From contig CAYOLO010000002.1 of assembly GCA_964404855.1 (NCBI GenBank), positions 3,494 to 67,493 of the forward strand: a stretch of 64,000 nt of DNA, given 5' to 3'. The DNA comes from an uncultured Gammaproteobacteria bacterium (lineage in GTDB: Bacteria; Patescibacteriota; Microgenomatia; CAYQLK01). Under the pieces are notes generated by a model. The model was not told where the DNA came from and did not search any database. It saw only the letters and a list, made by a program, of their open reading frames with translations. The position numbers and the translations under genes are program-made. Positions 1,523 to 58,317 of this stretch are shown piece by piece; position 1 is the first letter of the stretch; each line of letters begins with the position of its first letter.

Positions 1523-2161
1523 TTAGACAGCGCCTTTTTGAGAAAGTAGAGCAGGAACTGTGAGGATTATAATCTTTAAATCATACAAGATTGAGCGCTT
1601 TTTTGCATAATCCGCATCCAATTTGACCCTTTTTTCGAACGAAATATCGCTCCTACCAGAAACTTGCCAAGGACCAGTTAAGCCTGGTTTGGCAGTTAGG
1701 AGTGTTTTGACGTATTTTTTGGTTTCTGGGAAGGCTTTTTGCTGATTAATTAACTCGTCTGGATAATACGCTCTTGGCCCAACAAGACTCATTTCTCCTT
1801 TTAGAACATTAATAAATTGTGGCAACTCATCAATGCTTGTTTTGCGTATAAAATGCCCTAAGGGAGTGACTCTGGGGTCGTGTGATAGTTTGTAGGAATT
1901 TTTCTTGTATTCCTCATAAAGTTTCTTGAATTTTGGGTCACTTTGTAACAAAAGATGAGCATCTTTTATCATTGAACGGAACTTATACATTTTGAACGAC
2001 TTACCGTCTTTACCGCTTCTTTTAGGCACGTCGGCAAACACAGGTCCTGGGCTTGATCTTTTGATCGCGATTGCAATTACAGGAAAAATTAAACACAGAA
2101 TAGACATCCCAACCAGTGAACCGACTATATCGATTGTGCGTTTTGCGAAATCGTAAAACAT
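1523..2161 (-). CDS. Small bacterial sugar transferase (polyprenyl-phosphate hexose-1-phosphate transferase, WbaP/PglC-like initiating enzyme)
   Basis: 212 aa. N-terminal TM helix, then KMYKFRSM...[20 protein letters not shown], the classic PF02397 motifs. Confidence 0.85.
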
Positions 2162-2164
2162 TAT

Positions 2165-3268
2165 TTAAAGATAATCTTCGTGCCCTTCCTCTTTAAGTTT
2201 AATCACAGCATCTTTAACCTTTCCACTAGCATCTTTGGCGACGACTAATAGAGCGTCTTGTGTGTCAACAATTATTAGTCCCTTAACACCAACCGCAACG
2301 AGCATTTTATTGCCGTTGGTCGAAAAGAGTAAATTATCGCTGGATTCAACCGTAATTGATTTACCGGTCGACACGTTATCTTCAGGTAATTCGCCAAGCT
2401 CGTCTTTTAGCACATCCCATGTTCCCACATCACTCCAACCCAAATCAGCAGAAATTACTAGCCGTTCTGTTGGGCCGAGTTTTTCGAGAATTGCGAGATC
2501 AATTGAGGTTTTTTCGATTGTGGCAAATAAGTCTTTTACGGCTTTACTTGAGCTGTCTCCGTTTTTGACTAATTCTGAAATTTTTTGAAGTGTTTTGTAA
2601 GTCGTAGGCGCGAATTCTTCGTAGTAACCAAGGAGTGTTTTGGTTGACCAGACTGAGTAACCTAAGTGCCAAAGGTATTCCCAAGACTCAAGAAATTCTT
2701 GAGCTTTTTCTAGGCTAGGTTTTTCAATTTGGGCGATGAATTCGAATAAACCTAAATCTTCGATTTTTTCGATCATCTTGCCTGTTTTTATGTATCCTAG
2801 CTGGGTGCTTGGAAATGTTGCTCTGACACCAAGCTCAACAATTTTTGAGGTTTTGGCGCTGACCTCTGCGGCTTTACGCAAAGACTTCAAGAAATTCTTT
2901 TCATTTTTAATTAAATGATCACTCCAAAGACTGATAACGGTCGGGTTATTGAATTTGGTATCTAACATCATGGCGGCAAAACCAATAGCAGCCATGGTAT
3001 CTCTACCTTCGGGTTCGATAATAATATTTTCTAATGGAATATGCGGAGCCTGAGAAACGATATGGCCAACAAACTCCCTTCTGGCTACGGGGAAGATATT
3101 TACAGATCCAAACTCTTTTTCAAGGCTAGCAACTAATTTTTCGAATGTACTCTTGCCACCGATTAGTGGCTGAAACTGTTTTGGTTTGTCTGATCTGGAA
3201 GCAGGCCACATTCTTGAACCGCTACCTCCACAAAAAATTGCAATTTTTATCGATTGGTCTTTTGTCAT
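2165..3268 (-). CDS. manC: Mannose-1-phosphate guanylyltransferase
   Basis: IAIFCGGSGSRMWPASR...KPKQF nucleotidyltransferase P-loop typical of ManC/GMP. 367 aa, with no C-terminal isomerase domain. Confidence 0.75.
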   Translation of the reverse strand: MTKDQSIKIAIFCGGSGSRMWPASRSDKPKQFQPLIGGKSTFEKLVASLEKEFGSVNIFPVARREFVGHIVSQAPHIPLENIIIEPEGRDTMAAIGFAAMMLDTKFNNPTVISLWSDHLIKNEKNFLKSLRKAAEVSAKTSKIVELGVRATFPSTQLGYIKTGKMIEKIEDLGLFEFIAQIEKPSLEKAQEFLESWEYLWHLGYSVWSTKTLLGYYEEFAPTTYKTLQKISELVKNGDSSSKAVKDLFATIEKTSIDLAILEKLGPTERLVISADLGWSDVGTWDVLKDELGELPEDNVSTGKSITVESSDNLLFSTNGNKMLVAVGVKGLIIVDTQDALLVVAKDASGKVKDAVIKLKEEGHEDYL

Positions 3269-4341
3269 AGATATTTTGCTATATTTTGGATAAATTGACT
3301 CTGGCGGTATTTTAGCGCATTTTGATAGAGTTTGTCAGCTTTGAAGCTTGTCTTTTCAAAAACTTTAATTGCATTTATTAGTGACTGGGGTGTTTGTTTC
3401 TCGTAAAGTATTCCGGTTTCACCATTTATAACTGTTTCTTTGGCGCCTCCACTGTTTAGTGCAATTACTGGAGTGGAAAGTGCTTGCGATTCAACAGCGG
3501 TGATGCCAAAATCTTCGTCTTGAGGCATAATCATTGCTCGTGATTGAGAAACAATATCTGCGACTTTTGAATCATTGATCCAACCTGTAAACATAACATT
3601 GTCCCCTGCAATTTTTTTTAGCCGAGACATATCACTGCCTGTACCTATAATTATTAATTTTCTATCAGGTAGATTATTGAATGCTTGAATAGCGTAATCG
3701 ATTCTTTTCCATTTTTCTAAACGAGAAACTATGACATATTGATTGGGGGTTTTTGAAATAATTCTTTTCTTGAAATAGCTATCGTCTGCAAAAGGATAGA
3801 CCACCTGACTATCAAGACTATATATATTTTTTATTTTTTGTTGGATATTTTGCGAATTGGCTATCAATATGTCTGGGCGTCTAGTTGCCAAAGAATCGTA
3901 AAATTTTAACCACTTAAAAATTGGCGAAACAAGATGCTGAAGAAAACTATTGTTTATATATCTTTTCAAATTTTGTTCGGAATACAAAAATCTGGGTGGT
4001 GAGTTGATATAGCCAATATGAAACGTTTCTGGCCTAGTAATTACAGCTTTTGCAAACAATGTAGTAAGTGAAATTATTCGATCATAATTTGAGAGATCAA
4101 AGGATTCATAGGCTATCGGGAAGAATGCCAAATATGGCTTGGGATTTTGCGCAGCTCTGGGAAATTTTTGCAACCAAGAACATACAATTCTTGTTTTAAA
4201 TCGCTCAGGGACTAATTCAGGATTATAGATTACGGTGTATATTTTTGATTCTGGATACTCATCAGCCAGACACCAAAGTAATTTTTCTGCCCCTCCTGAT
4301 TGGGTAATGGGATCAAATATTAATGCTATTTTCATACACAA
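3265..4341 (-). CDS. Glycosyltransferase family 4 (GT-B, retaining)
   Basis: C-terminal EDFGITAVESQALSTPVIALNSGGAKE motif (E-x7-E GT4 signature). Confidence 0.8.
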   Translation of the reverse strand: MCMKIALIFDPITQSGGAEKLLWCLADEYPESKIYTVIYNPELVPERFKTRIVCSWLQKFPRAAQNPKPYLAFFPIAYESFDLSNYDRIISLTTLFAKAVITRPETFHIGYINSPPRFLYSEQNLKRYINNSFLQHLVSPIFKWLKFYDSLATRRPDILIANSQNIQQKIKNIYSLDSQVVYPFADDSYFKKRIISKTPNQYVIVSRLEKWKRIDYAIQAFNNLPDRKLIIIGTGSDMSRLKKIAGDNVMFTGWINDSKVADIVSQSRAMIMPQDEDFGITAVESQALSTPVIALNSGGAKETVINGETGILYEKQTPQSLINAIKVFEKTSFKADKLYQNALKYRQSQFIQNIAKYL

Positions 4342-5416
4342 AAAGTGTTTGTTCGGCGGTTTTGCACCAGGAATATTTTTTTAGTTGTTTAGTACCTAGG
4401 TCTACTAGCCGATTTTTTTCTTTTTTATAGTTTTTTAGTAAAAATCTAATTTTTTCTTCTAAATCATCTACACTTTCGGGATTAAAATATATTGCAGCAT
4501 CCCCATATATTTCTGGAAGTGGACCAGCATCAGAACAGACTACAGGGGTTTTCATTGCCATAGCTTCTAACCCCGGAACGCCAAAACCCTCAGATTTTGA
4601 GGGGAACAAAAAAAACATCGAACCTTGATAAAGTGAAGCTATTTCTGCATCTTCAAGATTCTCTAAAAAAACAAATTGCTTACTGCTATATGTTAGGTTC
4701 TTGATATCGTTTAGATTCTTGTTGAATTTGCTAACAATCACAAACTGAAGTTCAGGAATTTTTTTGATGGCGTCGACAGCAAGTGTCAGATTTTTGTAAG
4801 GATAGCTATTACCTATATATAAACAATAATTGTCCTTAATTGAGTATTTTTTGTAGTCGAACACTTTTTTTACTCTAATGTTTTCAAACTGATCAGCACC
4901 TTCGTAAATTGCGGTTATTTTTTGACTGGAACAAGCTGGATAAGCAGACAAAATACGAGTCTTTGAATAGTTTGAGGGAGTGATAACGGATATCGACTTA
5001 TTAATGGCGTGATTAATAACTTTTTGATAAACAAAGTGTTTTAACTCGTATATAACCCTTGTTCTAGTTGAGGCCGAAAAATCCTTAAATTCGCTTTTAA
5101 TTAAATCGTGAATTGTAACGACAAAAGGTTTGTTGTAAAAAATTGGATGATTAAAGTGGGTAAAATGAACTAAATCTGGTTTTTGTGAATTAATTAATTG
5201 AATTAGTTTAAGTTGTTCGCTAAATCCATAATGGCCAATTTTTGTTTTGATAACTAATAAATTTTTTTGGCTTTGGATTTGAGCTGAATCATGAGTAATT
5301 AAAATAAACTGATGTTGTGGTGCGAGTTTGACAAGGTTGTTTACTAAGTTTTGGCTATATCTTCCAATTCCTGTGTGCTTGGGGCCAAAAAGTCTTGCAT
5401 CAATTAATACTCGCAT
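4313..5416 (-). CDS. Glycosyltransferase family 4
   Basis: SEGFGVPGLEAMAMKTPVVCSDAGPLPE motif. N-terminal GT4 domain present. Confidence 0.8.
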   Translation of the reverse strand: MRVLIDARLFGPKHTGIGRYSQNLVNNLVKLAPQHQFILITHDSAQIQSQKNLLVIKTKIGHYGFSEQLKLIQLINSQKPDLVHFTHFNHPIFYNKPFVVTIHDLIKSEFKDFSASTRTRVIYELKHFVYQKVINHAINKSISVITPSNYSKTRILSAYPACSSQKITAIYEGADQFENIRVKKVFDYKKYSIKDNYCLYIGNSYPYKNLTLAVDAIKKIPELQFVIVSKFNKNLNDIKNLTYSSKQFVFLENLEDAEIASLYQGSMFFLFPSKSEGFGVPGLEAMAMKTPVVCSDAGPLPEIYGDAAIYFNPESVDDLEEKIRFLLKNYKKEKNRLVDLGTKQLKKYSWCKTAEQTLFVYENSINI

Positions 5417-5418
5417 TA

Positions 5419-6330
5419 TTATAAATACTTCAACTGAAATATTTTAATATTTTTTTTAATATCAATAAAAAGAAAAATTAATATTTCAAGTAATTTGGGA
5501 TATTGCTGACTGTAATGTTTATGGTAGAAAATTTTCATTGTTTCATAAAAATGTTTCGAGGTCCGAAGTCTGGTTTCGATGCTTGCTTTAGATTTTTTTT
5601 CTGAGTGTTTTTTAATACCAGAGGAAATGCCTTTTGTGTGCAAAACAATTGAAGAAGGGTTATAAAAAATCTGAAAGCCTGCTTTTTTTGCCCTGTAGCT
5701 GAAGTCAATATCTTCGGCGTACATAAAAAAATCTTCATCCAGTAATCCGATTTTATTGATAACTTCTTTTTTTATTAACATAAATGCGCCAGATGGAGAG
5801 TCAATTTCGTGAACCTTATCCATTGATTTGTACCACATATGATATTGACTAAATTTTGGATTAGAAGGAAAAAACTTTTCAAGACCAATAAAATAGCTAA
5901 AGGATACCCAAGGCGTCGGAAATCCTCGGTGAGAGGCTGGATCAATCTGGCCATTTGATAAAACTAATTTCGGAGTTACAATCCCAGCTTTTGGGTGAAT
6001 ACTAAGAAAGTCGACCATTTTAACAATTGTGTCTTTTGAAACTTTGGTATCAGGATTAAGAAGAAGCACATAACTTCCTTTGGATTTTTTGATACCAATA
6101 TTACATCCTGCGGCGAACCCGACATTTTCTGGATGATTAATGATAGTGAGCCAAGGAAGCTTAAGATGTTTAATTTGTGAAATACTGTCATCACTTGAGG
6201 CGTTATCGACAACAATACAATTTAATTTAAAATTTGATTTCAGGCTTGCCTTTAAGCTAAAAATGCAGTTTTTAAGATAAATACCGGCGTTGTAATTAAC
6301 AATGACTATATCGACTGTAGGTTTAACCAT
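5419..6330 (-). CDS. Glycosyltransferase family 2 (GT-A)
   Basis: DIVIVNYNAG...VVDNASSDDS...NPDT motif series. Confidence 0.8.
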   Translation of the reverse strand: MVKPTVDIVIVNYNAGIYLKNCIFSLKASLKSNFKLNCIVVDNASSDDSISQIKHLKLPWLTIINHPENVGFAAGCNIGIKKSKGSYVLLLNPDTKVSKDTIVKMVDFLSIHPKAGIVTPKLVLSNGQIDPASHRGFPTPWVSFSYFIGLEKFFPSNPKFSQYHMWYKSMDKVHEIDSPSGAFMLIKKEVINKIGLLDEDFFMYAEDIDFSYRAKKAGFQIFYNPSSIVLHTKGISSGIKKHSEKKSKASIETRLRTSKHFYETMKIFYHKHYSQQYPKLLEILIFLFIDIKKNIKIFQLKYL

Positions 6331-6332
6331 AA

Positions 6333-7571
6333 TTATTTTTTAGTTAAGTCTCTATATATTCCATCAAGCTTGTTACCTATTACTTCCCACTCATAAACAT
6401 TCTCTACCAACTTACGAGCGTTTTTTGAAACTTTTTCTCGAAGTGGTTTGTTTTTTAGCAGTTTTACTACCATATCGGCTACCTGCTGAGGCGTCTCACC
6501 AACTAAAACACTGCTGTTATTTATTGCTTCAATCCCTTCTATGCCAACAGGAGTAGCTACGACGGGAGTACCGATTGCCATAGACTCTAAGATCTTTAAT
6601 TTTGTCCCTGAACCAATCCTAATTGGAGCAACTGACAGCCATGATTTGGTTAATATTTCTTTTTTGATTTCTTCTTCGACAAATCCGGTTACGGTAATGT
6701 TTTCGGAGTTTAATTTTGCTACATCATTACTTAGCATTCTTTGTATTCCTTTTGGAAGCAATGGTCCAACAATATAAAGATGAGCATCAATTTGACTGGT
6801 AACTAATGGCCAAATATTTTTTACGAAAAAAAACGCCGCATCAGTATTAGCAAAATACCTAAAGTTTCCCAGGAAAACAACCGTTGGTTTTGGATATTTT
6901 TTGGTTTTTGTTGGAACATAATGTTTTGTATCCACTCCGTTAGGAATTAAATCAGTAGCAACATTTATTTTTCTCTTTTTAAGATAGGATGTTAGTAGTA
7001 TTCTGTCTATTTCACTTGCAAATGTGACCTTGTCAAAATATTGGCAAACTTGGACTTCATAATTAAGCATTTTTCTGGCATCTATGTATCCAACCAGTTT
7101 GAGTAATGGATTCTTTTTTTGTTGAGCATTTCTAAAATAAACTTGAGCTTCCACGTCAACTTTGGCGAGTAAAATTGGGATTTTTATCTTATCTCTAACA
7201 GCCAGTAAGCTCTGTGCCATATAAAAAGTTTCAAGATGAATAAGATCTGGTTTTTCTTTTTTAATAACTTCAAGAATTAAATTCTCCGTTTCAGACGAAA
7301 AGTTATTTACTACTGTAAGGAATGAATATTTTGTAAGTAAAGTTCTGACTAGATTTTGTGCCGACCACGCCTTTCTCCTCAGTACTGGATAAATCTTAAA
7401 TCCTTGCTTTTCCAAAATCTTAACATCTTTAAATTCATCAGTGTTTTTTAGAAGACAGATTAAAACTATTTCGTGTTTTTTGCTTAGTTTTTTTAGAAAG
7501 TTGTAAACTCTAACTTTTCCACCCGTAATTGGTGGATAAGGAATATATGGTGATATTAGTAATACTTTCAT
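6333..7571 (-). CDS. Glycosyltransferase family 4
   Basis: MKVLLISPYIPYPPITGGK N-terminus. C-terminal GSGTKLKILESMAIGTPVVATPVGIEG. Confidence 0.8.
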   Translation of the reverse strand: MKVLLISPYIPYPPITGGKVRVYNFLKKLSKKHEIVLICLLKNTDEFKDVKILEKQGFKIYPVLRRKAWSAQNLVRTLLTKYSFLTVVNNFSSETENLILEVIKKEKPDLIHLETFYMAQSLLAVRDKIKIPILLAKVDVEAQVYFRNAQQKKNPLLKLVGYIDARKMLNYEVQVCQYFDKVTFASEIDRILLTSYLKKRKINVATDLIPNGVDTKHYVPTKTKKYPKPTVVFLGNFRYFANTDAAFFFVKNIWPLVTSQIDAHLYIVGPLLPKGIQRMLSNDVAKLNSENITVTGFVEEEIKKEILTKSWLSVAPIRIGSGTKLKILESMAIGTPVVATPVGIEGIEAINNSSVLVGETPQQVADMVVKLLKNKPLREKVSKNARKLVENVYEWEVIGNKLDGIYRDLTKK

Positions 7572-8998
7572 TTATTTAGGGAAATAATTATATATTTATT
7601 TGTACGATATAAAACCTTGTTTTCTTTAGCAAGTTTTTCTATTCCTTCATCAAATTTTAGCGAAACAACGGCTGTGGCGCCTTGGTCTTTAAATACCGAC
7701 ATTTCCTCATAAAATTCTGCCCATCCTGGTCGATTCACATAGTACAGTAGCGATAAATCACCAGCTAGAGGTGCAATAACTTTGTCGTTGGCGTTTAACA
7801 GCTCATCAGCCTTTTTACCTGCCTCTACAATATCATTATTTGTTAAATAGTAACCTTTTACTTCGTAATACCCAAATGCAATTGAAATAATGATAAGAAA
7901 AACCGCAACAGAAACACTAATTGATTTTTCAATAAGGGACTGTCCAGTTTTCAGAAGATGGTCAATACCAAGTGCAACAAATACTGCTAATACTGGCATA
8001 TAAATATATTGATAGTAATCGTGACGAACGTTCGAAGAAGCAAAGATTACGAAATACAAAATCATTGAAAATAACCAAACAAAATAAAAATAATTCTCTT
8101 TATTCTGTCTTCTGGCTACCAGTCCAAAAAACATTAAAACAAAGCCACCTGTACCTAAAATTAATTTAGCAAGTCTTTCAAAAATTAACCATCTAAAAAA
8201 TGCTCCAGTGAATCGGATATCTCCATAATTTAAATACCAATTTGAGCCAATTTGAGCCTCGGGATAATTTGCTCCCCATGCCCGCCATAGGACCAAAGGA
8301 ACAAAAGAAATTAACAAAAAACCGTAATATTTTAAGGAATAGTAAAACAAACCATCTTTTATTAAGGCAAGGTAGATTATTGGAATGAGCCAGAAAACAA
8401 CATAAGGGTAACTGAGGCTTGCTAAGGCAAATAATATACTTGAAAGAAAAAAGGATATTTTAGAATTATTAAAATAATACCTACTAAATAACCATAGTGA
8501 AGCCAAGCCTAAGCAAACCATTGTTGAATTAGGCATTATGACTCTTCCGTAATAAATACTGTATGGCATAAGCGCAAATACTAGGGCGGCTATAATTGCT
8601 ACTCTGGAATTGGAAAACTTTCTGACTAATAAAAACAGGAAAACAGCCGAAAACGAGGCAAATATTGCAGAAACGAGTCTTGCGCTCGACTCATTAATAC
8701 CAAAAATATCCCAAACAAAACCAACAATTAGTGTGTAGATTGGAAACTCCAAGAAGGTTAAACCTTGTGGGTTTGGTTTTTTACTATCAGAAATAGCAAG
8801 AATATTATCGGTTCTAGGACGCAAAATATTAAACCCTTCATCAGCAAAATTCCTAGCCACCATCGCAGTATCTGCTTGTCTAAAGGAGTGCCAGTCTGTA
8901 ATTGAATTATCGATTTTGTAGAGCCTTGGCAGTAAAGTTATAAAAAAAATAACCCCAAGCAATATTAAAGATAGAAATATCTTTTTATATATCTTCAT
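7568..8998 (-). CDS. GT-C fold polytopic membrane glycosyltransferase, ArnT/PMT_2-like
   Basis: ~11 predicted TM helices. First extracytoplasmic loop has WHSFRQADTAMVARNFADEG (the ArnT-family FRQADTA/DE-type motif). C-terminal soluble domain of ~110 aa. Confidence 0.55.
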   Translation of the reverse strand: MKIYKKIFLSLILLGVIFFITLLPRLYKIDNSITDWHSFRQADTAMVARNFADEGFNILRPRTDNILAISDSKKPNPQGLTFLEFPIYTLIVGFVWDIFGINESSARLVSAIFASFSAVFLFLLVRKFSNSRVAIIAALVFALMPYSIYYGRVIMPNSTMVCLGLASLWLFSRYYFNNSKISFFLSSILFALASLSYPYVVFWLIPIIYLALIKDGLFYYSLKYYGFLLISFVPLVLWRAWGANYPEAQIGSNWYLNYGDIRFTGAFFRWLIFERLAKLILGTGGFVLMFFGLVARRQNKENYFYFVWLFSMILYFVIFASSNVRHDYYQYIYMPVLAVFVALGIDHLLKTGQSLIEKSISVSVAVFLIIISIAFGYYEVKGYYLTNNDIVEAGKKADELLNANDKVIAPLAGDLSLLYYVNRPGWAEFYEEMSVFKDQGATAVVSLKFDEGIEKLAKENKVLYRTNKYIIISLNK

Positions 8999-9018
8999 AT
9001 TGGCAATAAATAAATTAA

Positions 9019-11507: not shown

Positions 11508-11510
11508 TGT

Positions 11511-12113: not shown

Positions 12114-12117
12114 ATAT

Positions 12118-32571: not shown

Positions 32572-32572
32572 A

Positions 32573-34090
32573 TTATTTGACTTCGAAAATTCTTAAATAG
32601 GTATTTGAATTACCCTTTGCATACTTGCCCAATTCCAATATATTTTGATTTTTAAATAATTCTTCATCCTGTGTTAGGTTATAGATAAAAAAAGTTTTCT
32701 GGGTTTTTGATTTTTCTAACACTTCGACCGGAATGGTTTTTACAGGGTAGTATCCTTTTATTTCAACATTTGGATTTTTAATCAATTCAATTTCTAACGC
32801 ATAAGGAAGAAGGCCAAATGTTCCTTCGGTTCCAACAAAAATCTTTTCAGCTAGAGACGCGTTGTTAATTATTTCAACAGCTTCTTCTATTCCACCCCCT
32901 GCTGGCCAATCATTAAATAGTTGATTTTTATCGTTTTCAGGAATAATGGAGTTTGTTGGATTAATTATAATTGACATTATTCCCAATATTGGCCAAATTA
33001 AAATAATTGAAATTGTAAAAAGTTTTAATTTTAGTGATTTAATTTTTTCAATTTTTTCGACCACAAAATATGAACTTACAACAAAAATTATTGGAACCAA
33101 ATAGAGTAGATATCTTGGATAAATTATTTTTCCAAAAAAAGCAGTAGTAAAAAATGGCACCATTACCCAGATAAGTAAGAAAATTATTTTAAAGTTTAGC
33201 TTGAATCCGTAATAAATGGCAGACAAAATAAATAGAAAAAATGGAATTGGGGTTAAGTATTGAAACATCCAACTAATCAAGGCTGGCGTATTACCAAAGA
33301 CTAAGTAAAATGGGTTTTGAATAAATTCTTTGTTCGTGAGAATAAAAGTATGATTTTTCTCATCTATCATATTGAATAACGGGAAAAGCCTTAGCGAATT
33401 AAACATTGAATAAGCAATAAAGGTTGAAAGTAAAAATAATCCAATCAGCTTAAAAACAGTGGTTTTATTAAAACTAAATTTGTTTCTAATTTGAAGTAGT
33501 AAACTAAACGGAAGCAAATATATAAAAAAGTTTGCAGAAGACTTAGTCAAAAGTCCAAGACCGATTGTGAAACCTAATAAAAGTGACAAGTCAACTCTTG
33601 GTTTTTTTACCAAAAGCACTGTAAATAACACACTATAAATGCTTATCATTGAGATTAAACTTTCGTATATTGCTAATCGGTTATATACAAAAAAGAATGG
33701 ACTGGTTAAAAACAAACTTGCAGCAATAAGTCCTGTAAGCGAATTTTTTAGAACTCTACCTAAAAAATATATTCCAATGATTGAAACCAAGCCATAAAGA
33801 ACTGATAGTAATCTTACTGCCAGTAAGGAGTCATTTAATAACTTAACTGGAATCATTGCTATCCAAATAAATAATGGTTGTTTCCCGTCAAGAAGCGAAA
33901 TATATCTTAAAGATGCATCATTGGCAGCAATTTGAGCCCATCGTACATAGATCGCCTCATCTGTAAAAATTGGAGTCTTGTTAATAAAAACAAGATTGAT
34001 TAGTAAATAGATAATGATAATTCCAAAAAGTATGAATAGTTGATTAAGAGGAATTACTTTATTTATTTTCACAATAATTTTCGATGCCAT
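32573..34090 (-). CDS. GT-C fold membrane glycosyltransferase, ArnT/PMT_2-like
   Basis: PIFTDEAIYVRWAQ...KQPLFIW...AVRLLSVLYG (DE / PL / RL motifs). ~12 TM helices plus a C-terminal soluble domain. Confidence 0.65.
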   Translation of the reverse strand: MASKIIVKINKVIPLNQLFILFGIIIIYLLINLVFINKTPIFTDEAIYVRWAQIAANDASLRYISLLDGKQPLFIWIAMIPVKLLNDSLLAVRLLSVLYGLVSIIGIYFLGRVLKNSLTGLIAASLFLTSPFFFVYNRLAIYESLISMISIYSVLFTVLLVKKPRVDLSLLLGFTIGLGLLTKSSANFFIYLLPFSLLLQIRNKFSFNKTTVFKLIGLFLLSTFIAYSMFNSLRLFPLFNMIDEKNHTFILTNKEFIQNPFYLVFGNTPALISWMFQYLTPIPFFLFILSAIYYGFKLNFKIIFLLIWVMVPFFTTAFFGKIIYPRYLLYLVPIIFVVSSYFVVEKIEKIKSLKLKLFTISIILIWPILGIMSIIINPTNSIIPENDKNQLFNDWPAGGGIEEAVEIINNASLAEKIFVGTEGTFGLLPYALEIELIKNPNVEIKGYYPVKTIPVEVLEKSKTQKTFFIYNLTQDEELFKNQNILELGKYAKGNSNTYLRIFEVK

Positions 34091-35169
34091 TTGTATAGTA
34101 TAAAGCTTAACGGAAGACTAGATATGATAATTATATATTTTAGATAGAATGACAATCCTTCATATGAGCCAGATTGTATATATGGAATATGGGAAAAAGG
34201 TAAAAGTAGACTGATTAAAATAATACAATCTCTTGTGTAGCTACCCTTTGGAGAAATATAGGCGAGTGGAAGGACCCAAATTATGTACCAAATTTGAAAC
34301 TCTGTTCTAAAGGAAGCAATAAAAATTGAGAGTAAAGTTAAAAATAATAATGAGCTTGAAAAATATTTTGGAGTAAATTTTTTAATAATTAATGAAGGTA
34401 TCATAAAAAAGTTCGCGTATTTAATAAGCCCGCCAATAATTAAGGAAAAATAACTGATTTTTGTGTTTGCGACATAAACAACACTAATAATTAACGCTAA
34501 GGCGACATAAATGTCATTGTGGTTCCCGATTAATACCTCAGTAATTATTAACGGATTAAATAAAAATAGAAGGTTTTTATTGTCTGATTTTGAATTTAAT
34601 AACTTACTCGCAATAATTGCTGATATTATCGCAATTATTTTGAACAAAAATATTTGTATAAGTAGTTTAGTGGATATTAATGTGACTATTATTCCTGGTA
34701 TCAACCACAAAGGTCCGTATGGATACGTTCTATGTGTCCATCGCATAAAGTGAACCATGGGGTTGTTTGGGAAGTCGAGAGCTGAAAAATTATATGGATT
34801 CCCCCCATATTGAGTAATTATTTTTGAATCAAAAATGTAATTAAAAATGTCATAAGAAAGTAAAGCAGAATACGAAAAGGTTAATGGAAAAACTAATACA
34901 AATATTAATGATTTTTTGTTTATGTCGGCTAAATTTTTTTGGAAACTTAAAACCAAATAGATAATAATCCAAACAACTAAAAGTGAAGCAAAAACTAAGC
35001 TTGAAAGATTGCGATGATAGAAACCTAGATTTTGTAAACTATGTTGAAAAGACAAAACAAAAGTATTTTGTGAAAGCGTTAGATTTAGATCTGTAAGCGA
35101 GTATGAATAAACTGTTGTAGTTATTGATACTAAAAAAATGAGCAACAATATTAGCTTGGAACGATTCAC
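34069..35169 (-). CDS. Polytopic membrane glycosyltransferase, GT87/PIG-M/DUF2029-like (mannosyltransferase-like)
   Basis: SYDIFNYIFDSKIITQYGGNPYNFSAL...HRTYPYGPLWL matches the PIG-M/GT87 pattern D-x-D-Y-x-V-F-x-D-A...G-x-S-P-Y...Y-x-Y-T-P-L-L. Confidence 0.45.
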   Translation of the reverse strand: MNRSKLILLLIFLVSITTTVYSYSLTDLNLTLSQNTFVLSFQHSLQNLGFYHRNLSSLVFASLLVVWIIIYLVLSFQKNLADINKKSLIFVLVFPLTFSYSALLSYDIFNYIFDSKIITQYGGNPYNFSALDFPNNPMVHFMRWTHRTYPYGPLWLIPGIIVTLISTKLLIQIFLFKIIAIISAIIASKLLNSKSDNKNLLFLFNPLIITEVLIGNHNDIYVALALIISVVYVANTKISYFSLIIGGLIKYANFFMIPSLIIKKFTPKYFSSSLLFLTLLSIFIASFRTEFQIWYIIWVLPLAYISPKGSYTRDCIILISLLLPFSHIPYIQSGSYEGLSFYLKYIIIISSLPLSFILYKWHRKLL

Positions 35170-35176
35170 AAAAGAT

Positions 35177-35905
35177 TTATGCTTTTATCCAGTGATGTTT
35201 GAGCCAGATCTTTGCAAGACTGGTGAGTGTCATAATGGCATTTTTAGCTGTAACATGCATTCTTGTTTCACCGCCATAATTCCATTCGACAGGAACTTCA
35301 GCAACTTTATATTTCAACTTTCTAGCCATATATAAGATTTCTACATCGAAAATGATATTTTCTATTATTTGTCTTGAAAAAAGATCCTTAGCAGAATCAT
35401 GACTAAACATTTTAAATCCAGTTTGTGAATCTTTAATCCCTCTAACTAAAAATTCGCGAATGAAAGTAAACATTTTACCTAATACTCTTCTGTATAGAGG
35501 TTGTGATGCTCGCAAGTCTTTTCCTGTTGACTGTATCCTTGAACCGATTGCGATATCGGCTCCGTTGTTAATAGCTAGAATAAGTTTGTCTGCTTCTGTA
35601 ATTGGTGTTGCCATATCTGCGTCGGCAAAAATAATATATTTACCTTTTGCCTCAAGCATCCCTTTTTTGACTGGATATCCCTTAAAGTAGTTCTTTGGTG
35701 ATTTTAGAATTTTTAAATTACTTTGACTTTTGATTAAATCTTCAACAATCTGGACAGTGTTATCTTTGGAAAAATCATCAGAAACAATGATTTCGCCAGA
35801 TATTTTTTTTGAATCAAAGTATTCTTGAACTGATTTTATTGAAGAAGCTATTCTTTCCGACTCGTTATAAGTAGGGATTACGACTGATAAATATATTTCT
35901 AACAT
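35177..35905 (-). CDS. Polyprenol-phosphate sugar synthase, GT2 Dpm1/CsbB/GtrB-like
   Basis: LSVVIPTYNESERI...IIVSDDFSKDNT...FADADMATP...DSQTGFKMFS, the Dpm1-type motifs. 242 aa soluble form. Confidence 0.75.
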   Translation of the reverse strand: MLEIYLSVVIPTYNESERIASSIKSVQEYFDSKKISGEIIVSDDFSKDNTVQIVEDLIKSQSNLKILKSPKNYFKGYPVKKGMLEAKGKYIIFADADMATPITEADKLILAINNGADIAIGSRIQSTGKDLRASQPLYRRVLGKMFTFIREFLVRGIKDSQTGFKMFSHDSAKDLFSRQIIENIIFDVEILYMARKLKYKVAEVPVEWNYGGETRMHVTAKNAIMTLTSLAKIWLKHHWIKA

Positions 35906-35930
35906 AGGTTAATTTTACTTGTATTCTTTT

Positions 35931-37448
35931 TTATTTACTAGGCTCGTGAATTAGACGGAATATTTTAATATGCCCAGGAATAAAATCAAGCTCCTGATCA
36001 AGCTGTCTTGGCCCAAAAGATAAAATTTGAGGCATAGGACTTAGATTGTAACGACAATCCTTTTCTTCACATACAACAATTAACTGGTCGGTTATTTGAT
36101 TTTCAATTGGTGTAGGAGCAAGATTACTCTTTTCTAAAAAGAACCGGTACGCGTAATCTGTGTTACCGCTTGCCATAAGGGCAAAATTGTATGGCTTACC
36201 ACCAGCCAACTCTAGTACTTTATTTGAGACACTTTTAGCTGTCTTTAACTGATTTGATTCTTGTTTAAAAATAATATTCTTTGGTAAAAGATATGCAATA
36301 AGGGCAAATGTACAGACAATTAATATTATGGAGACAATTTTTTGTTTTTTAAAAGTAAAAAAGATTAACGAAAGTAATAAAAATGGCACAGGAAACAAAA
36401 AAGAAAAATAGTAGTTGTACAACTCGCCATTATAAAATGCTAAACCTAAAATTCCTGATAATGCCCAAATAATAACGACTAAATAAAAATCGTTAATTTT
36501 TTTGGATTTAAAAAATCCTACAGAAATTACTGCAAGCAACAAAGTAGCCAGACCTACAAATAATGCGGCCTCTGAGTTAGTTATAGATAATGTTTCTCTA
36601 AACAAACGACTAATTGCCGATAATACATTATCACCGAATTGAAATTCCCGAATGCCAACTGCGCCGGATGGTTTCGTTACAAATTCAATAATCGTCGAAG
36701 TGTTTTTAAATCCATGCCTTAATTCGAACAAAAAGTATGGTGAAAATGTAAATAAAAAGCCTGAGAAGGTAATTAGATATATTTTTATTAATCTAGATAT
36801 ATTATCGATTGAAAAAATAGTTGTAATTATAAAGATAGGCAATGCAAGTATTAAGCCTAAATAGTGTGATTGAATTGCTAAACCAAAAATAGCTCCAACT
36901 GCAAAACTAAAAACTAACTTATTTTTTTCTTTTGATAACAACAAAAATACAAATATTAACAACGACAAAAACGGTAAAATATTAGGATTCCAGCTTGATC
37001 TTGAAAACATAACCACTACTGGAGACACAGAATAAAGTAGGGCAGCAAGAAATGCAGGTAAAAACCCTAAATATTTTTTAATAACTAAATACAGAATAAT
37101 TACTGTAACAAAACCAAGGACTGCAACCTCAAATGCCATTCCAACTGGAGACATACCAAAAAGCAAAAAACCAGGAATTACCAAGTAATAATATGCAGGG
37201 CCAAGAAAAAACCCTCCAACTGAAGCAGATGGGCCTAATAAAGTAAGTTTTCCTTCCTGAAAAATATTTAATAAAACTAAGGCGTCTCTTCCTTCATCAC
37301 CGAGAAATGTCATATGCCCTTCAATATTCCAAAACCTTAGAATTGAAGCAATTATTACTAAAACTAATAAAAAAAAGAATTCAAGCTTTTGATTTTTGGC
37401 ATACAAAAAAAGTTTTTTTTGGTATTGAGACAATAATTTATTTAACAT
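35931..37448 (-). CDS. GT-C fold membrane glycosyltransferase, ArnT/PMT_2-like (divergent)
   Basis: RFWNIEGHMTFLGDEGRDALVLLN...LGPSAS...GMAFEVAVLG. ~12 TM helices plus a C-terminal soluble domain. Confidence 0.55.
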   Translation of the reverse strand: MLNKLLSQYQKKLFLYAKNQKLEFFFLLVLVIIASILRFWNIEGHMTFLGDEGRDALVLLNIFQEGKLTLLGPSASVGGFFLGPAYYYLVIPGFLLFGMSPVGMAFEVAVLGFVTVIILYLVIKKYLGFLPAFLAALLYSVSPVVVMFSRSSWNPNILPFLSLLIFVFLLLSKEKNKLVFSFAVGAIFGLAIQSHYLGLILALPIFIITTIFSIDNISRLIKIYLITFSGFLFTFSPYFLFELRHGFKNTSTIIEFVTKPSGAVGIREFQFGDNVLSAISRLFRETLSITNSEAALFVGLATLLLAVISVGFFKSKKINDFYLVVIIWALSGILGLAFYNGELYNYYFSFLFPVPFLLLSLIFFTFKKQKIVSIILIVCTFALIAYLLPKNIIFKQESNQLKTAKSVSNKVLELAGGKPYNFALMASGNTDYAYRFFLEKSNLAPTPIENQITDQLIVVCEEKDCRYNLSPMPQILSFGPRQLDQELDFIPGHIKIFRLIHEPSK

Positions 37449-37462
37449 ATTTCGACCCTAAG

Positions 37463-38614
37463 CTATGAAGATTTTTTTCGCCAAATTACTTTTGTATTTA
37501 AAATCCAGTTTAGAGCCAAGCCCAAAATCACACCGATTGCCAAAGAAATTTGCTTGTGAATTCCGAAATAAGGAGTGAGAGTGTTAATAACTAAAATTTG
37601 AATTAATGGTGAGCCGAGTGCAGTTATATTAAATTTAATAAAACGGGTAAATATTGATCCGCCAACCTTTCGATATCTAAATGTCCAAAAATTATTTATT
37701 AGAAAAATAGTAACAATCGACATCTCACCCGAAAGCAATGTCGCCATAAACAATGGTGTATCTTTGATCGCTGAAATCAGCCCAGATAATCCATCCACAG
37801 AGTGAGTGGACCTAAAAATTGTTGTTGCAACCGATAATGTAATTGCATTAACCAAATAACCGACAACTCCTGTAATTAAAAATTTAATTAATTCAGAGTG
37901 ATATTTAACAGAAACCAAAATTACTACCCTAAGCGAGTCAATTATTTCGTTTTTTTGAATCTTGGAATGACCTTTTTCTCTGTCGATAAATTCAATTGGG
38001 ACTTCTTTAATTTTTGCTCCACTTTTGTATAGGGCATAAAATAAATGAATTTTGTATGAGAAACGATTAGATAACAGATTATGATAGTCAATTTTTTTGA
38101 GATACTCTGTTTTTGTTGCTCTAAATCCAGTAGTCATATCGTGAAACTGTGGAGCAAGCAAAATAACTCTTGCGACAATATTTCCTAATGCAGATTGAAT
38201 TTTACGATGAATACCCCAGTCGGAAGGAATTGAACCACCTTTTATATACCTTGTACCAACTGCGACATCTGCACCATTTTTGATTGCTGATACCATAGCT
38301 GATACATACTGAGGTTTATGAGAACCATCTGCATCCATCTCAAAAACGACTTCGGCATTTAGCTCATTAATTGCATAATCAAACCCTCTAACATAAGCAG
38401 CACCTAACCCATTCTTCTTACCGGAAATAAGGAATATATTTTTATTTTTTTTCTGTAAAGTTTTTATAACTTCTGCGGTTCCATCTGGCGACTCGTCGTC
38501 AACAAAAAGAATTTTTAAATCAATATCTTTAGGATTGTATTTAGTTATTTCTGAATAGATATACTCAATGTTATCCTTTTCGTTGTAAGTTGGGATTATG
38601 ATAACTACTTTCAT
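37463..38614 (-). CDS. Dpm1-like GT2 polyprenol-phosphate sugar synthase fused to a C-terminal GtrA-family membrane domain
   Basis: N-terminus VVIIIPTYNEKDNI...VDDESPDGT...EMDADGSH...TTGFRATK (Dpm1 motifs). C-terminal ~130 aa with 4 TM helices and NNFWTFRYRK (GtrA PF04138 hallmark). Confidence 0.75.
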   Translation of the reverse strand: MKVVIIIPTYNEKDNIEYIYSEITKYNPKDIDLKILFVDDESPDGTAEVIKTLQKKNKNIFLISGKKNGLGAAYVRGFDYAINELNAEVVFEMDADGSHKPQYVSAMVSAIKNGADVAVGTRYIKGGSIPSDWGIHRKIQSALGNIVARVILLAPQFHDMTTGFRATKTEYLKKIDYHNLLSNRFSYKIHLFYALYKSGAKIKEVPIEFIDREKGHSKIQKNEIIDSLRVVILVSVKYHSELIKFLITGVVGYLVNAITLSVATTIFRSTHSVDGLSGLISAIKDTPLFMATLLSGEMSIVTIFLINNFWTFRYRKVGGSIFTRFIKFNITALGSPLIQILVINTLTPYFGIHKQISLAIGVILGLALNWILNTKVIWRKKSS

Positions 38615-39630
38615 TAAGTGTTTTGGGCAGCTTTAACTACTTTGCGATATTTTTCCATATCGGCATCGACCATCATCTTGACTAGTTCAGAAAATGTAGT
38701 TTTTGGTGTCCAACCAAGTTTTTCTTTTGCTTTGGTTGCGTCCCCTTTTAGAAAATCGACCTCAGCGGGGCGCATAAATTTTTCATCAAGCCCAATATGG
38801 TTTTGCCAATTATCAATACCGACGTGTTTGAATGCTTCTACTATAAAATCTTTAATTGTGTGAGTTTCACCTGTAGCAATAACAAAATCCTCTGGTTGGT
38901 CTTGTTGCAACATTAACCACATTGCCTCTACATAATCTCCAGCAAAACCCCAGTCACGGGCAGCATCGAGGTTACCAAAATCAACCTTGTCAATAAGTCC
39001 AAGCTTAACTCTTGCAGCTGCGTCGGTAACTTTTCTAGTTACAAACTCGATACCTCGTCTTGGCGACTCGTGGTTGAAAAGTATTCCTGAAACGGCAAAC
39101 ATATCATATGACTCCCTATAATTAATTGTCATCCAGTGCCCATAAAGCTTGGCAACTCCGTAAGGGCTTCTGGGATAGAATGGTGTTTTTTCTGTTTGAG
39201 GAGTTTCTTGAACTTTGCCAAACATTTCTGAAGAGGAAGCCTGGTAAAATTTTGCGTCTGGCTTGACGTGCTTTAATGCGTCAAGCATTCTAGTGACACC
39301 CATACCAGTAAGTTCACCAGTAAGTACGGCTTGATTCCATGAAGTCTTAACAAAAGACTGGGCGGCTAAGTTATATACCTCGTCCGGCTGACTTAAGTCG
39401 ATTGCGGAAATTAACGACTGTTCATCATAAAGGTCACCTTCAACTAAATGTAGTTGAGGTAAAATAGACTCTATTCTTTCGGTGTTTGGTGTTGATAAAC
39501 GTCTAACGACACCATAAACATCGTAACCTTTTTCTAGTAGCAATTCAGCTAAATACGAGCCGTCCTGACCAGTAATTCCTGTAATAAGTGCGGTCTTTGA
39601 TTTTGTTTCTTTCATAGTATTTATCCTCAA
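38614..39630 (-). CDS. gmd: GDP-mannose 4,6-dehydratase
   Basis: [33 protein letters not shown]...TERI and downstream GMD-specific blocks. 338 aa. Confidence 0.9.
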
Positions 39631-40541
39631 GAAATTTTAGCAGATTTTGAATTAATCTGTGCTTTTAAGATTTTAATAGCTTCTACGTTTGTTAAAACAG
39701 GTACACCTAACGACTCAATTTTTTTAACGATTAAGCCTCCATTGATTGGCCGTTTGGCTTTGTCAGGAAAATTTTGTCTAAATAAATAAATCGATCCTCT
39801 TTCTATAGGATAATTAAACTCAAAAACCTGATTAATTATTTGTCCAAAACTGTAAGGGGTGACAACATCTGAATTTGCCAAGTGATAGACACCACCTAAT
39901 GATTTTTCAAGACTAAGGTTAATAAAATCGGCAAGGCAGTCAATAAAAGTGGGGGTCAGAAATTGATCATTAAAAAGTGGATATAACGATTGATTCTCCA
40001 TCTTGGAAATAAGATCGCGAGCAAAATCCCCTTTTGTAAAACTAGATCTGAATGGATAAGCAATTCTGATAATTTGATGCTTGTCGGAGTCATTTAATAT
40101 GTTGTCCTCTGCGAGCTTTTTGGTCCAACCGTACCAGCTAAGATTCTCTTGGGAGCTGGTTGGGTCAGTCTCTGTATATGGACCTTTATTCCCGTCAAAA
40201 ACAAAATCTGTAGAAATAAAAACCACTTTTGCGTTATGGGACGCGGCAGCGTTAAGAACATTTTGAGTCACATTTACATTTGTCTGATAGCAAAGACCTT
40301 CAATGTCACCCTTCTGATTTTCCGCCTCGTCTACAGCTGTGTAGCCAGCAAAATGAAGAATTATTTCGAAATCCAAGTTATCTAATGTTTTTTTAAGCTG
40401 TGACAAATCATTTAAGTCAGATTGAATATCGGCTCGCCCTATCTCTCTAGAAATTGTCGTGATTGTGTGTTTATCTCTTAGAAGCTCATAGACTCTACTT
40501 CCGACGAGTCCCGTCGAACCGGTAAATAATATTTTTGACAT
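39627..40541 (-). CDS. RmlD-family NAD(P)H sugar-nucleotide 4-ketoreductase (dTDP-4-dehydrorhamnose reductase-like)
   Basis: [14 protein letters not shown] Rossmann motif. [38 protein letters not shown] matches the RmlD substrate-binding domain pattern STDYVFDG..Y.E.D...P...YG.SK..GE. Confidence 0.65.
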
Positions 40542-40553
40542 AATATTTAAAAA

Positions 40554-41423
40554 TTAACTACTATTCTCAGCTACAGACATTAAATATTTTCCGTATCCGC
40601 TTTTTAATAAAGGCTCAGCCAAATCAATCAGTTGAGCTTTAGTGATAAATCCTTTTTGAAAAGCCGTTTCTTCAATACATCCAATCTTAACTCCTTGTCG
40701 TTGTTCAATTACTTGCACGAATTGTGAAGCTTGCATCATTGAATCAAAGGTGCCGGTATCAAGCCAAGCCGTGCCTTGTTCTAGTATTGCTACTTTGAGT
40801 TTATTCTCTTTTAGATAGTAAGCGTTTACGTCTGTAATCTCATATTCACCGCGCTCACTAGGTTTGATGTTTTTTGCAATTTCAATAACATTGTTGTCGT
40901 AAAAATATAAGCCAGTAACAGCATAGTTTGATTTTGGTTTAGAGGGTTTTTCTTCAATCGATACCGCGATATTATCCTTATCAAATTCAACGACTCCATA
41001 TCTTTCTGGGTCAGAAACTCGATATGCAAAAACTTTACCTCCTTCGATTGAATCAGTTTGTGGAAGCACATCATCGAGCGAAGAACCATAAAAAATATTG
41101 TCACCCAATATCATCGCAACTGAATCCGAGCCGATAAAAGATTCCCCAATAACGAAAGCTTGCGCCAATCCGTTAGGGATTTCTTGAATAGCGTAATTAA
41201 AACTACACCCATACTTACTTCCATCACCAAGAAGTTTTTGAAATCCTGGAAGATCCTGTGGAGTAGAAATAATTAATACCTCATTAATTCCAGCTTTTAG
41301 TAGAATAGACAAAGGATAGTAAATCATTGGCTTGTCGTAGACAGGCATGATTTGTTTACTGATTGCGTAAGTAATTGGGTAAAGTCTGGTTCCGGAACCT
41401 CCGGCGAGTATTATTCCTTTCAC
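40554..41423 (-). CDS. rfbA: Glucose-1-phosphate thymidylyltransferase
   Basis: [39 protein letters not shown] is a near-canonical RmlA N-terminus. 289 aa. Confidence 0.9.
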
Positions 41424-42963: not shown

Positions 42964-42965
42964 AA

Positions 42966-51184: not shown

Positions 51185-51198
51185 ACCTAATTATTATA

Positions 51199-54036: not shown

Positions 54037-54043
54037 GAAGATT

Positions 54044-58310: not shown

Positions 58311-58317
58311 ATAAATA

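Follow-up and report, generated by a model that had tools for sequence, protein, structure and literature searches.

The 64-kb stretch of contig CAYOLO010000002.1 described here (positions 1–64000, referred to below as the window) contains at 1523–41423 a locus of 34 open reading frames (ORFs) of at least 100 residues, all on the minus strand, one-third of which encode membrane glycosyltransferases of the GT-C fold. Each part of the locus falls within a known family; the novelty lies in the architecture, in which GT-C enzymes far outnumber donor synthases and are interleaved, in strict synteny among relatives, with a Wzx-type lipid-linked glycan pathway, and in the phylogenetic setting. The locus is conserved and probably polycistronic. 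We put at roughly even odds (about 0.5) the proposition that it directs a two-compartment assembly of one large envelope glycan of a monoderm-type cell of Curtissbacteria, a lineage of the candidate phyla radiation (CPR).

Organization of the locus

The genes are labeled g01–g34 from the low coordinate, with transcription proceeding from g34 to g01. Overlaps are found at 23 of the 33 junctions between them, and the widest intergenic gap is 25 nt. An initial annotation of this DNA had counted 35 genes, one more than appear in the ORF listing. It also described them as co-oriented, which is true but carries no information, because nearly the whole window lies on one strand: only four of its 64 ORFs of at least 100 residues, all of them short and overlapping longer minus-strand genes, are located elsewhere. 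The entire window thus forms one unbroken coding strand with intergenic space near zero. A scan of the window found no tRNA and no Rfam family at the gathering score.

As called, g13 (TTG start, 513 residues) and g18 (positions 20227–21924, 565 residues) overlap their upstream genes by 109 and 65 nt, respectively. Since the orthologues are shorter (478–479 residues for g13 and 546 for g18), the true starts are probably internal ATGs, that of g13 lying near position 15741 (479 residues).

The eleven GT-C enzymes

The set comprises six PMT_2 proteins, three members of the YfhO/PTPS-related group, one PIG-V-like protein, and one MptA/B-like protein. The initial annotation had arrived at the same number (six, three, and two), and each of these polytopic proteins passes a Pfam, fold, or profile test as a GT-C enzyme, which rules out that they are transporters. 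Hydropathy analysis gives at least eight hydrophobic segments in every one of the eleven. In each protein, the first extracytoplasmic loop also contains an acidic motif, these being FRQADTA, WLDEG, FDGVHY, WDE (twice), PGDN..PFRD, HDDQQ, TDDG, TDEAIY, SYDIFNY, and GDEGRD, and all of these motifs are unchanged among orthologues down to ~50% overall identity. No GT-C-like ORF is present among the ~24 non-overlapping ORFs in the remaining 23 kb of the window, so the clustering of these genes is far beyond chance.

Proteins g07, g13, g17, g18, g27, and g30 exceed the Pfam gathering score of PMT_2. Their joint profile matches ArnT (5EZM, E 1.4e-5), with the DE motif aligned with Asp55-Glu56 of that enzyme. 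Their pairwise identity is only 17–20%, with the exception of g17 and g18 (33%), which rules out recent tandem duplication; judged by these identities, they are old, diverged paralogues. Identities among all GT-C enzymes of the locus fall within 17–33%.

In the second group, g20 passes the gathering score of YfhO and g25 that of PTPS_related, a family that we take to be a member of the GT-C clan. Hydropathy indicates in g20 a big C-terminal extracytoplasmic region followed by a terminal transmembrane (TM) helix. Protein g26 has no Pfam match, but it aligns over its full length with its paralogue g25 (E 1e-37), both proteins resemble g20, and the homologues of g26 carry PF10131/PF09586. The AlphaFold2 (AF2) model of g26 (predicted local distance difference test score, pLDDT, of 94.8) is a helical bundle with a C-terminal β-sandwich and then a terminal TM helix. 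It matches PglB, STT3, AftD, DPY19, and ArnT, and the top Foldseek matches are all GT-C enzymes.

Protein g14 also lacks a Pfam match, although most of its homologues carry PF04188 (PIG-V/Gpi18-like). Its AF2 model (pLDDT 91.8) is again a helical bundle, and the top 29 Foldseek matches in the Protein Data Bank (PDB) are GT-C enzymes only, with a probability near 1, modest E-values (from 8e-3), and TM-scores of ~0.4–0.5. Among these enzymes are PimE, GPI-mannosyltransferase I, and ALG9/12. The evidence is least direct for g28, for which the Pfam-A scan gave no family even at E = 10, whereas the precomputed annotation of the identical protein and of its orthologues is PF26314 (MptA_B_family); this discrepancy may reflect a difference between copies of Pfam. 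A profile of the g28 family matches that of the g14 family with a probability of 92% (hhalign, E 6e-7, 297 columns), so that the probable MptA/B-like class of g28 is based on the precomputed annotation and this profile match. Sequence searches of the PDB with g14 and g28, as well as with the Wzy_C protein g08, returned no match.

Cytoplasmic machinery and supply of donors

Residues 1–379 of g31, including its TM domain, align with the dolichol-phosphate mannose synthase (DPMS) of Pyrococcus furiosus (5MLZ, E 2e-46). Because this DPMS homologue and ManC (g02) are encoded in the same locus, polyprenyl-phosphate-mannose is the most likely donor for the GT-C enzymes, and the end-to-end match strengthens an earlier proposal to that effect. 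The two polyprenyl-phosphate-sugar synthases named in the initial annotation are recovered as g31 and, as a candidate, g29. The latter is a soluble paralogue of g31, and its top NCBIfam matches, all below cutoff, are PgfS, a dolichol-phosphate-hexose transferase, and PpgS. Weak likeness to dolichol-phosphate-hexose transferases and AglJ in NCBIfam suggests that g16 and g22 could be further donor synthases. GtrA is not encoded as a separate protein in the locus; g31 carries a fused GtrA/DPMS TM domain, and the single Wzx flippase, g24, may serve an oligosaccharide rather than a lipid-linked monosaccharide. In the window and in its relatives alike, the GT-A and GT-C genes of the pairs g31–g30 and g29–g28 are adjacent.

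The remaining family assignments of the initial annotation are borne out as well. Pfam and NCBIfam match its initiating polyprenyl-phosphate sugar-1-phosphate transferase (PGT), ManC, acetyltransferase, Wzx, and Wzy_C proteins, and its approximately 15 GT2/GT4 enzymes correspond in Pfam to seven GT4, six GT2, and two DPMS-like GT2 proteins. Both Gmd and RmlA (g34, TIGR01207) lie above the NCBIfam cutoffs. In g32, TIGR01472 scores 448 bits (cutoff 415) vs 91 bits for RmlB, which rules out the assignment as RmlB, PF16363 covering both enzymes. The RmlD-like g33 is below the cutoff of TIGR01214, with RmlD as its top PDB matches.

PGT, Wzx, and Wzy_C occur once each within the 40 kb. The Wzy_C domain is common to polymerases, WaaL ligases, and O-oligosaccharyltransferases; neither NCBIfam nor the PDB sequence search gave a match that discriminates among them, and g08 could have any of the three activities. 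The NCBIfam matches of the GT2 proteins, Wzx, and Wzy_C are all far below the cutoffs.

Conservation and genomic setting

The order of g05–g34 is identical in independent assemblies at ~95%, 80%, and 55% identity. Genes g05–g22 occur in the same order, none gained or lost, in related loci at ~95% (L014), ~75–97% (L008, L009, and L015), and ~48–88% identity (L010, L011, and L016). L094 and L095 preserve the order of g22–g34 and of the CAP-domain gene beside them, and L096–L098 that of g01–g12, followed by DUF4012, RecO, and mraZ-rsmH-ftsI-mur. An identical g28 protein is found on eight contigs, and the six of these that were listed each stem from a different sample. Genes g22–g31 recur at 99–100% on one contig of 12 kb, and 43 blocks of the sequence collection contain an identical g01 protein. 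The recurrence of identical g28 and g01 proteins, together with collinear independent assemblies, rules out an assembly chimera, which the initial annotation had named among the results that would overturn its locus.

The word island, used in the same annotation, is in turn not appropriate, as the locus is a syntenic, vertically conserved core. Recent horizontal transfer is ruled out by the conserved order and by a dip in GC content at third codon positions (GC3) that is only modest (0.24 in g13–g31, cytoplasmic genes included, vs 0.28–0.30); because of the synteny, this dip is an old property of the locus. Over the same distance, the GT-C genes retain 48–55% amino acid identity vs 82–88% for the cytoplasmic g05 and g06 (L008, L010, and L016 compared with window positions 5419–26906). 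The faster-diverged GT-C enzymes nonetheless keep their gene order and the motifs of their catalytic loops.

The RF2 protein of the window falls in a 90% cluster with MBP6979575.1 of Candidatus Curtissbacteria, and named homologues of g14 and g26 come from Curtiss-, Gottesman-, Beckwith-, and Levybacteria. Complete genomes of the relatives are ~0.8 Mb, and the genome of the host is probably small as well. The upstream flank of the locus carries a type IV pilus block, a LytR_C protein, DedA, UppP, RF2, FtsE, FtsX, and an M23 peptidase, whereas the downstream flank consists of the DUF4012 protein followed by the division and cell wall (dcw) cluster. The DUF4012 protein is 629 residues long in relatives, is encoded directly downstream of PGT, and is the same neighbor in L096–L098.

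GT-C-rich loci in related lineages

A scan for the g14 family, with one genome per GTDB species, gave 399 relatives, from which the 80 best loci were kept. All of these best 80 of 399 carry CPR-type or plainly mislabeled titles and belong mostly to Microgenomates lineages. The 50 loci with a length of 18 kb or more contain a median of six GT-C-like ORFs per ~21 kb (range 3–8), as counted by iterated hidden Markov models (HMMs) seeded from the GT-C enzymes of the window, all of the surveyed loci having been chosen for a g14 homologue. When 67 of the GT-C-like ORFs, from 16 random loci, were checked against Pfam, 50 PMT_2, 31 PMT, five PTPS_related, three YfhO, and three STT3 matches were obtained, with a single false positive, a GT2. 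Precomputed annotations of two loci agree with this richness.

The density in the window, 11 per 40 kb, is typical among loci containing g14. The initial annotation, which regarded it as unusual, was right with respect to cultured bacteria; among Microgenomates-type CPR such a density is the norm. To our knowledge, 11 GT-C enzymes are far above the number in any studied bacterial sugar-polymer locus, and we know of comparable numbers only in the actinobacterial assembly of lipomannan (LM), lipoarabinomannan (LAM), and arabinogalactan (AG). Characterized bacteria use one GT-A and one GT-C enzyme per modification, with 1–3 such pairs per genome (PMC8035078; PMC11127046).

A conserved, co-oriented trio, consisting of a g16-type GT2, a GT4, and a PIG-V-like GT-C enzyme (15735–18622 in the window), was observed in 31 of 48 distant Microgenomates loci. 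This distribution suggests that g16–g15–g14 is an ancient core unit around which the clusters of GT-C genes vary.

Our search of a literature library found no description linking CPR with GT-C enzymes, PMT, or mannosyltransferases. A pathway resembling that of phosphatidylinositol mannosides (PIMs) was proposed from genome data for one Saccharibacterium (PMC6031116), and ~8 DPMS-like genes were noted in Peribacteria (PMC4736985). For Saccharibacteria, 'unexplored glycosylation processes' have been mentioned, with pilin glycosylation suspected but unexplored in CPR (PMC11623550).

Comparison with known systems

Close parallels are offered by the three-component systems, GtrA/B/C of Shigella and Salmonella phages, CsbB-GtcA-YfhO, GacI/J/K/L, and CsdAB/CD/EF (PMC8035078; PMC11127046). 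In these systems, as predicted for the locus described here, a GT2 enzyme makes a polyprenyl-phosphate-sugar for an extracytoplasmic GT-C enzyme of the PMT_2 or YfhO type. Common features are also the adjacent GT-A and GT-C genes, a GtrA-type TM module, and a location in or beside a Wzx-type polysaccharide pathway. However, the known systems consist of one synthase and one GT-C enzyme that add a single side-chain sugar, and the pairs are scattered, whereas here two synthases and 11 GT-C enzymes share one locus. Here, as in archaeal DPMS, the synthase and the GtrA-like module form one protein.

In the mycobacterial and corynebacterial assembly of LM, LAM, and AG (Ppm1, PimE, MptA–C, EmbA–C, and AftA–D), many GT-C enzymes similarly share one or two polyprenyl-phosphate-sugar donors, from which they polymerize and branch an envelope glycan outside the membrane. 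The MptA/B-family and PimE-like folds, as well as the supply route from GDP-mannose to polyprenyl-phosphate-mannose (PPM), are further points of likeness. The window differs in containing neither genes for decaprenyl-phosphoryl-arabinose (DPA) nor enzymes of Emb/Aft size with a carbohydrate-binding module, although g26 and g20 do have β-rich C-terminal domains. It differs also in its undecaprenyl-diphosphate (Und-PP)/Wzx/Wzy_C route and in the arrangement of the genes in one 40-kb block, the actinobacterial ones being dispersed over 4 Mb.

The grouping of PGT, nucleotide-sugar genes, GT2/GT4 enzymes, acetyltransferase, Wzx, and Wzy_C is that of Wzx/Wzy loci for O-antigens, capsules, or secondary cell-wall polymers. 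Unlike such loci, the one in the window has no detected genes for Wzz or another polysaccharide co-polymerase (PCP), for export, or for a ligase of the LytR-CpsA-Psr (LCP) type, and one-third of it is GT-C. Its gene content is invariant to ~50% identity, whereas theirs is hypervariable.

Lumenal glycosylation in eukaryotes and archaea (DPMS, ALG3/9/12, PIG-V/M/B, PMT, and STT3/AglB) provides a full-length archaeal homologue of g31 and PIG-V/ALG-like counterparts of g14. It has the same succession of a cytoplasmic stage, a flip, and a dolichol-phosphate-sugar-dependent stage. The locus differs in being bacterial, in its priming by a Bac_transf enzyme, and in having no STT3/AglB-type oligosaccharyltransferase at the family level.

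Proposed assembly and its alternatives

In the scheme that we infer, with its donors, order of steps, single product, and acceptor, ManC, Gmd, the RmlD-like protein, and RmlA would supply GDP-mannose, a GDP- or dTDP-6-deoxyhexose, and dTDP-glucose. PGT (g01) would prime undecaprenyl phosphate, and up to 13 GT4 and GT2 enzymes, together with the O-acetyltransferase, would build a lipid-linked oligosaccharide in the cytoplasm. Wzx (g24) would then flip the Und-PP-linked glycan, to be polymerized by g08 or ligated by it to an acceptor. Meanwhile, g31 would convert GDP-mannose to polyprenyl-phosphate-mannose, its fused GtrA-like TM domain perhaps helping to present the lipid, and g29 would make a second polyprenyl-phosphate-sugar. 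From these donors, the eleven GT-C enzymes would elaborate the glycan after its export, adding or polymerizing residues on the outer side of the membrane, by analogy with GtrC, YfhO, and GacL, which act on O-antigens, teichoic acids, and rhamnans, or with MptA/B and PimE, which act on lipomannan. UppP is an Und-PP phosphatase, and family knowledge suggests that UppP and DedA would recycle the lipid carrier. The genes of this plausible recycling pair adjoin each other 9 kb upstream of the locus, and the pair would suit a pathway in which a great deal of polyprenyl phosphate is set free outside the membrane.

This two-compartment scheme is supported by the contiguity of all parts of two systems, multi-component transmembrane glycosylation and a lipid-linked pathway of the Wzx type, by the retention of the acidic motifs, the tight packing, and the kept gene order, and by the setting between ftsEX-M23/uppP/dedA and DUF4012/dcw. 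The adjacency of GT-A and GT-C genes is as in CsbB-YfhO and YkcC-YkcB (PMC8035078), and the glycopolymer-decorating enzymes GtlB, GacL, CsdD/F, and YfhO fall in the Pfam families PMT_2 and YfhO (PMC8035078, Table 2). Several observations weigh on the other side. Scans for promoters and terminators gave results at chance level and thus no information on operon structure. The locus has only two clear lipid-donor synthases for 11 GT-C enzymes, and NCBIfam finds neither RmlB nor RmlC in the window for the 6-deoxyhexose route. No Wzz/PCP and no LCP catalytic domain were detected among the ORFs of the window, although they could be encoded elsewhere in the genome, and the scheme therefore does not account for the sizing and anchoring of the product; the sole LCP-related match in the window is a LytR_C domain. 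In addition, the number of transferases, 24, is high for a single repeat unit and favors more than one product.

That last argument leads to a possible but doubtful alternative, in which the locus is a supercluster of two or three separate envelope-glycosylation pathways kept together by compaction and conserved order. Its parts might perhaps be a Wzx-dependent wall polysaccharide (g01–g12 and g21–g24), a block for three-component decoration or a lipoglycan (g25–g31), and the g16–g15–g14 module. Such a division would agree with the presence of the trio alone, without the other genes of the window, in the 31 distant loci mentioned above, with the contiguity of g25–g31, a block of donor synthases and GT-C enzymes set off by Wzx, and with the weakness of adjacency as evidence of a shared product in a one-strand window where unrelated functions abut. 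It is contradicted by the single PGT, Wzx, and Wzy_C, by the interleaving of GT-C genes with those of cytoplasmic transferases, and by the collinearity of the blocks, with no insertion, down to ~50% identity. If, instead, the main product were a lipoglycan anchored in the membrane, like the PIM/LM/LAM of mycobacteria, the GT4 enzymes would mannosylate a lipid anchor in the cytoplasm, and the PIG-V-like, MptA/B-like, and PMT_2 enzymes would use polyprenyl-phosphate-mannose to build a branched mannan outside. The membership of g28 in the MptA_B family, the likeness of the g14 model to PimE, GPI-mannosyltransferase I, and ALG9/12, the presence of a PPM-synthase homologue, ManC, and seven GT4 enzymes, and the PIM-like pathway proposed for a Saccharibacterium (PMC6031116) all point in this direction. 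We nevertheless find it unlikely, as no phosphatidylinositol synthase, PIM-type acyltransferase, or DPA/arabinan genes were found among the ORFs of the window, PGT, Wzx, and Wzy_C indicate an Und-PP-linked route, and no GT4 reaches a PimA/PimB-specific model, though such models were not specifically run.

Quite improbable, in our view, is O-glycosylation of pilins, S-layer, or other surface proteins, in which Wzy_C would be an O-oligosaccharyltransferase of the PglL/PilO/WsaB type and the PMT_2 enzymes would mannosylate the proteins or extend their glycans. The occurrence of Wzy_C in such transferases agrees with it but does not discriminate among the roles of this domain. The lack of Wzz and LCP in the window would fit, as would the top NCBIfam match of g24, a weak one to 'O-glycosylation flippase' (106 bits vs a cutoff of 720), the type IV pilus block 12 kb away, and the suspected glycosylation of pilins in CPR (PMC11623550). 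The true PMT family, PF02366, is however reached by g18 alone, and marginally (23.7 bits vs a cutoff of 22.7), Pfam detects neither PMT_4TMC nor MIR domains in any protein of the locus, and the characterized Gram-positive relatives of PMT_2 and YfhO act on glycopolymers (PMC8035078). The two-compartment scheme and these alternatives overlap, and sequence alone does not separate them.

Features of the window

The coordinates of the genes of the locus and of neighboring features are listed in Table 1. The type IV pilus block consists of PilB, PilC, three ORFs with the N-terminal methylation motif of pilins (PF07963), and three ORFs without a Pfam match. Its pilin-like protein of 639 residues has a C-terminal β-propeller and recalls the PilX2 adhesin of the saccharibacterium TM7x (PMC11623550). 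The t6A genes Sua5 and TsaE stand beside a mere 106-residue fragment of the TsaD/TsaB family, representing a truncated TsaB or else a minimal form. A CAP-domain (cysteine-rich secretory) protein with a hydrophobic C terminus flanks the locus in the relatives as well, and a Lamin-tail-domain protein is encoded nearby; both are candidate surface proteins. Among the related records (L014–L093), many third-party annotation entries of CPR-type metagenome-assembled genomes bear the title 'uncultured Gammaproteobacteria bacterium' or 'uncultured Pseudomonadales bacterium', and one bears 'TM6'; such labels are apparently placeholders or wrong taxonomy.

Table 1. Genes of the glycan locus and neighboring features in the window
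Feature	Position	Strand	Basis
DUF4012 membrane-anchored protein, cut by left window end	1–1485	-	Pfam DUF4012, E 5.9e-17
g01, initiating polyprenyl-phosphate sugar-1-phosphate transferase, small Bac_transf type	1523–2161	-	PF02397, E 8.9e-59; TIGR03025/WbaP C-terminal domain
g02, ManC-type mannose-1-phosphate guanylyltransferase	2165–3268	-	PF00483 and PF22640; TIGR01479, E 1e-69, below cutoff because the phosphomannose isomerase domain is lacking
g03 (GT4), g04 (GT4), g05 (GT2), g06 (GT4), cytoplasmic Leloir transferases	3265–7571	-	Pfam
g07, GT-C PMT_2, motif FRQADTA	7568–8998	-	PF13231, 54 bits; motif invariant among orthologues
g08, Wzy_C-domain polytopic protein	9019–10608	-	PF04932, 48.6 bits
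g09 (GT2), g10 (hexapeptide O-acetyltransferase, WcaF-like), g11 (GT4), g12 (GT4)	10602–14305	-	Pfam, NCBIfam
g13, GT-C PMT_2, motif WLDEGIAA	14302–15843	-	PF13231
g14, GT-C PIG-V/Gpi18-like, invariant FDGVHY motif	15735–16865	-	PF04188 on homologues; AF2 and Foldseek
g15 (GT4), g16 (GT2), conserved trio with g14	16840–18622	-	Pfam
g17, g18, paralogous GT-C PMT_2, WDE motif	18606–21924	-	Pfam; 33% identical
g19 (GT2)	21860–22783	-	Pfam
g20, GT-C YfhO family, 767 residues	22776–25079	-	PF09586, 91 bits
g21 (GT4), g22 (GT2), g23 (GT2)	25057–27778	-	Pfam
g24, Wzx/MOP-family flippase	27775–29247	-	PF13440, E 2e-48; PF01943
g25, g26, paralogous GT-C, PTPS_related/YfhO group, motifs HDDQQ and TDDG	29222–32571	-	PF10131 (g25); paralogy, AF2 (g26)
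g27, GT-C PMT_2, motif TDEAIY	32573–34090	-	Pfam
g28, GT-C MptA/MptB (GT87-like), motif SYDIFNY	34069–35169	-	precomputed PF26314; hhalign
g29, soluble DPMS/PpgS-like GT2, candidate second polyprenyl-phosphate-sugar synthase	35177–35905	-	PF00535, E 1e-27
g30, GT-C PMT_2, motif GDEGRD	35931–37448	-	Pfam
g31, putative polyprenyl-phosphate mannose synthase, GT2 and GtrA/DPMS 4-TM fusion	37463–38614	-	PF00535 and PF04138; 5MLZ match
g32 (GDP-mannose 4,6-dehydratase), g33 (RmlD-family reductase), g34 (RmlA)	38614–41423	-	TIGR01472, TIGR01214, TIGR01207
CAP-domain protein	41708–42643
TsaD/TsaB-family fragment	42643–42963
t6A genes Sua5 and TsaE, together with the TsaD/TsaB-family fragment	42643–43935
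Lamin-tail-domain protein	44598–45815
UppP/BacA and DedA/VTT protein, outside the locus	50354–51864	-	PF02673, E 4.5e-76; PF09335, E 6.7e-20
LytR_C domain	51925–53439
Type IV pilus block	53524–61118
Pilin-like protein	56006–57925

Implications for the CPR envelope

CPR, or Patescibacteria, represent a large share of bacterial diversity, and the chemistry of their envelopes is essentially uncharted. The 40 kb devoted to this locus in a probably small genome, its strict gene order, and the class-wide occurrence of GT-C-rich clusters indicate that the glycan is a major surface trait under selection, on a surface where ultra-small cells presumably encounter hosts, phages, and their surroundings. 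Bacterial three-component glycosylation, known so far as decoration by one synthase and one GT-C enzyme, is extended by the locus to an assembly line with many of the latter. The locus is also a parts list for reconstitution, offering a DPMS homologue, a second putative donor synthase, and 11 divergent GT-C enzymes with identifiable catalytic loops.

We can speculate, very tentatively, that Microgenomates-type CPR build their main envelope glycopolymer mostly outside the membrane, with ~6–11 GT-C enzymes fed by polyprenyl-phosphate-mannose and the class-wide GT2/GT4/PIG-V-like core as a seed. If this were true, the product would be an undescribed class of bacterial envelope polymer, analogous to, yet independent of, actinobacterial LM/LAM and the eukaryotic assembly of GPI and N-glycans, and it could be essential to the episymbiotic cell surface.

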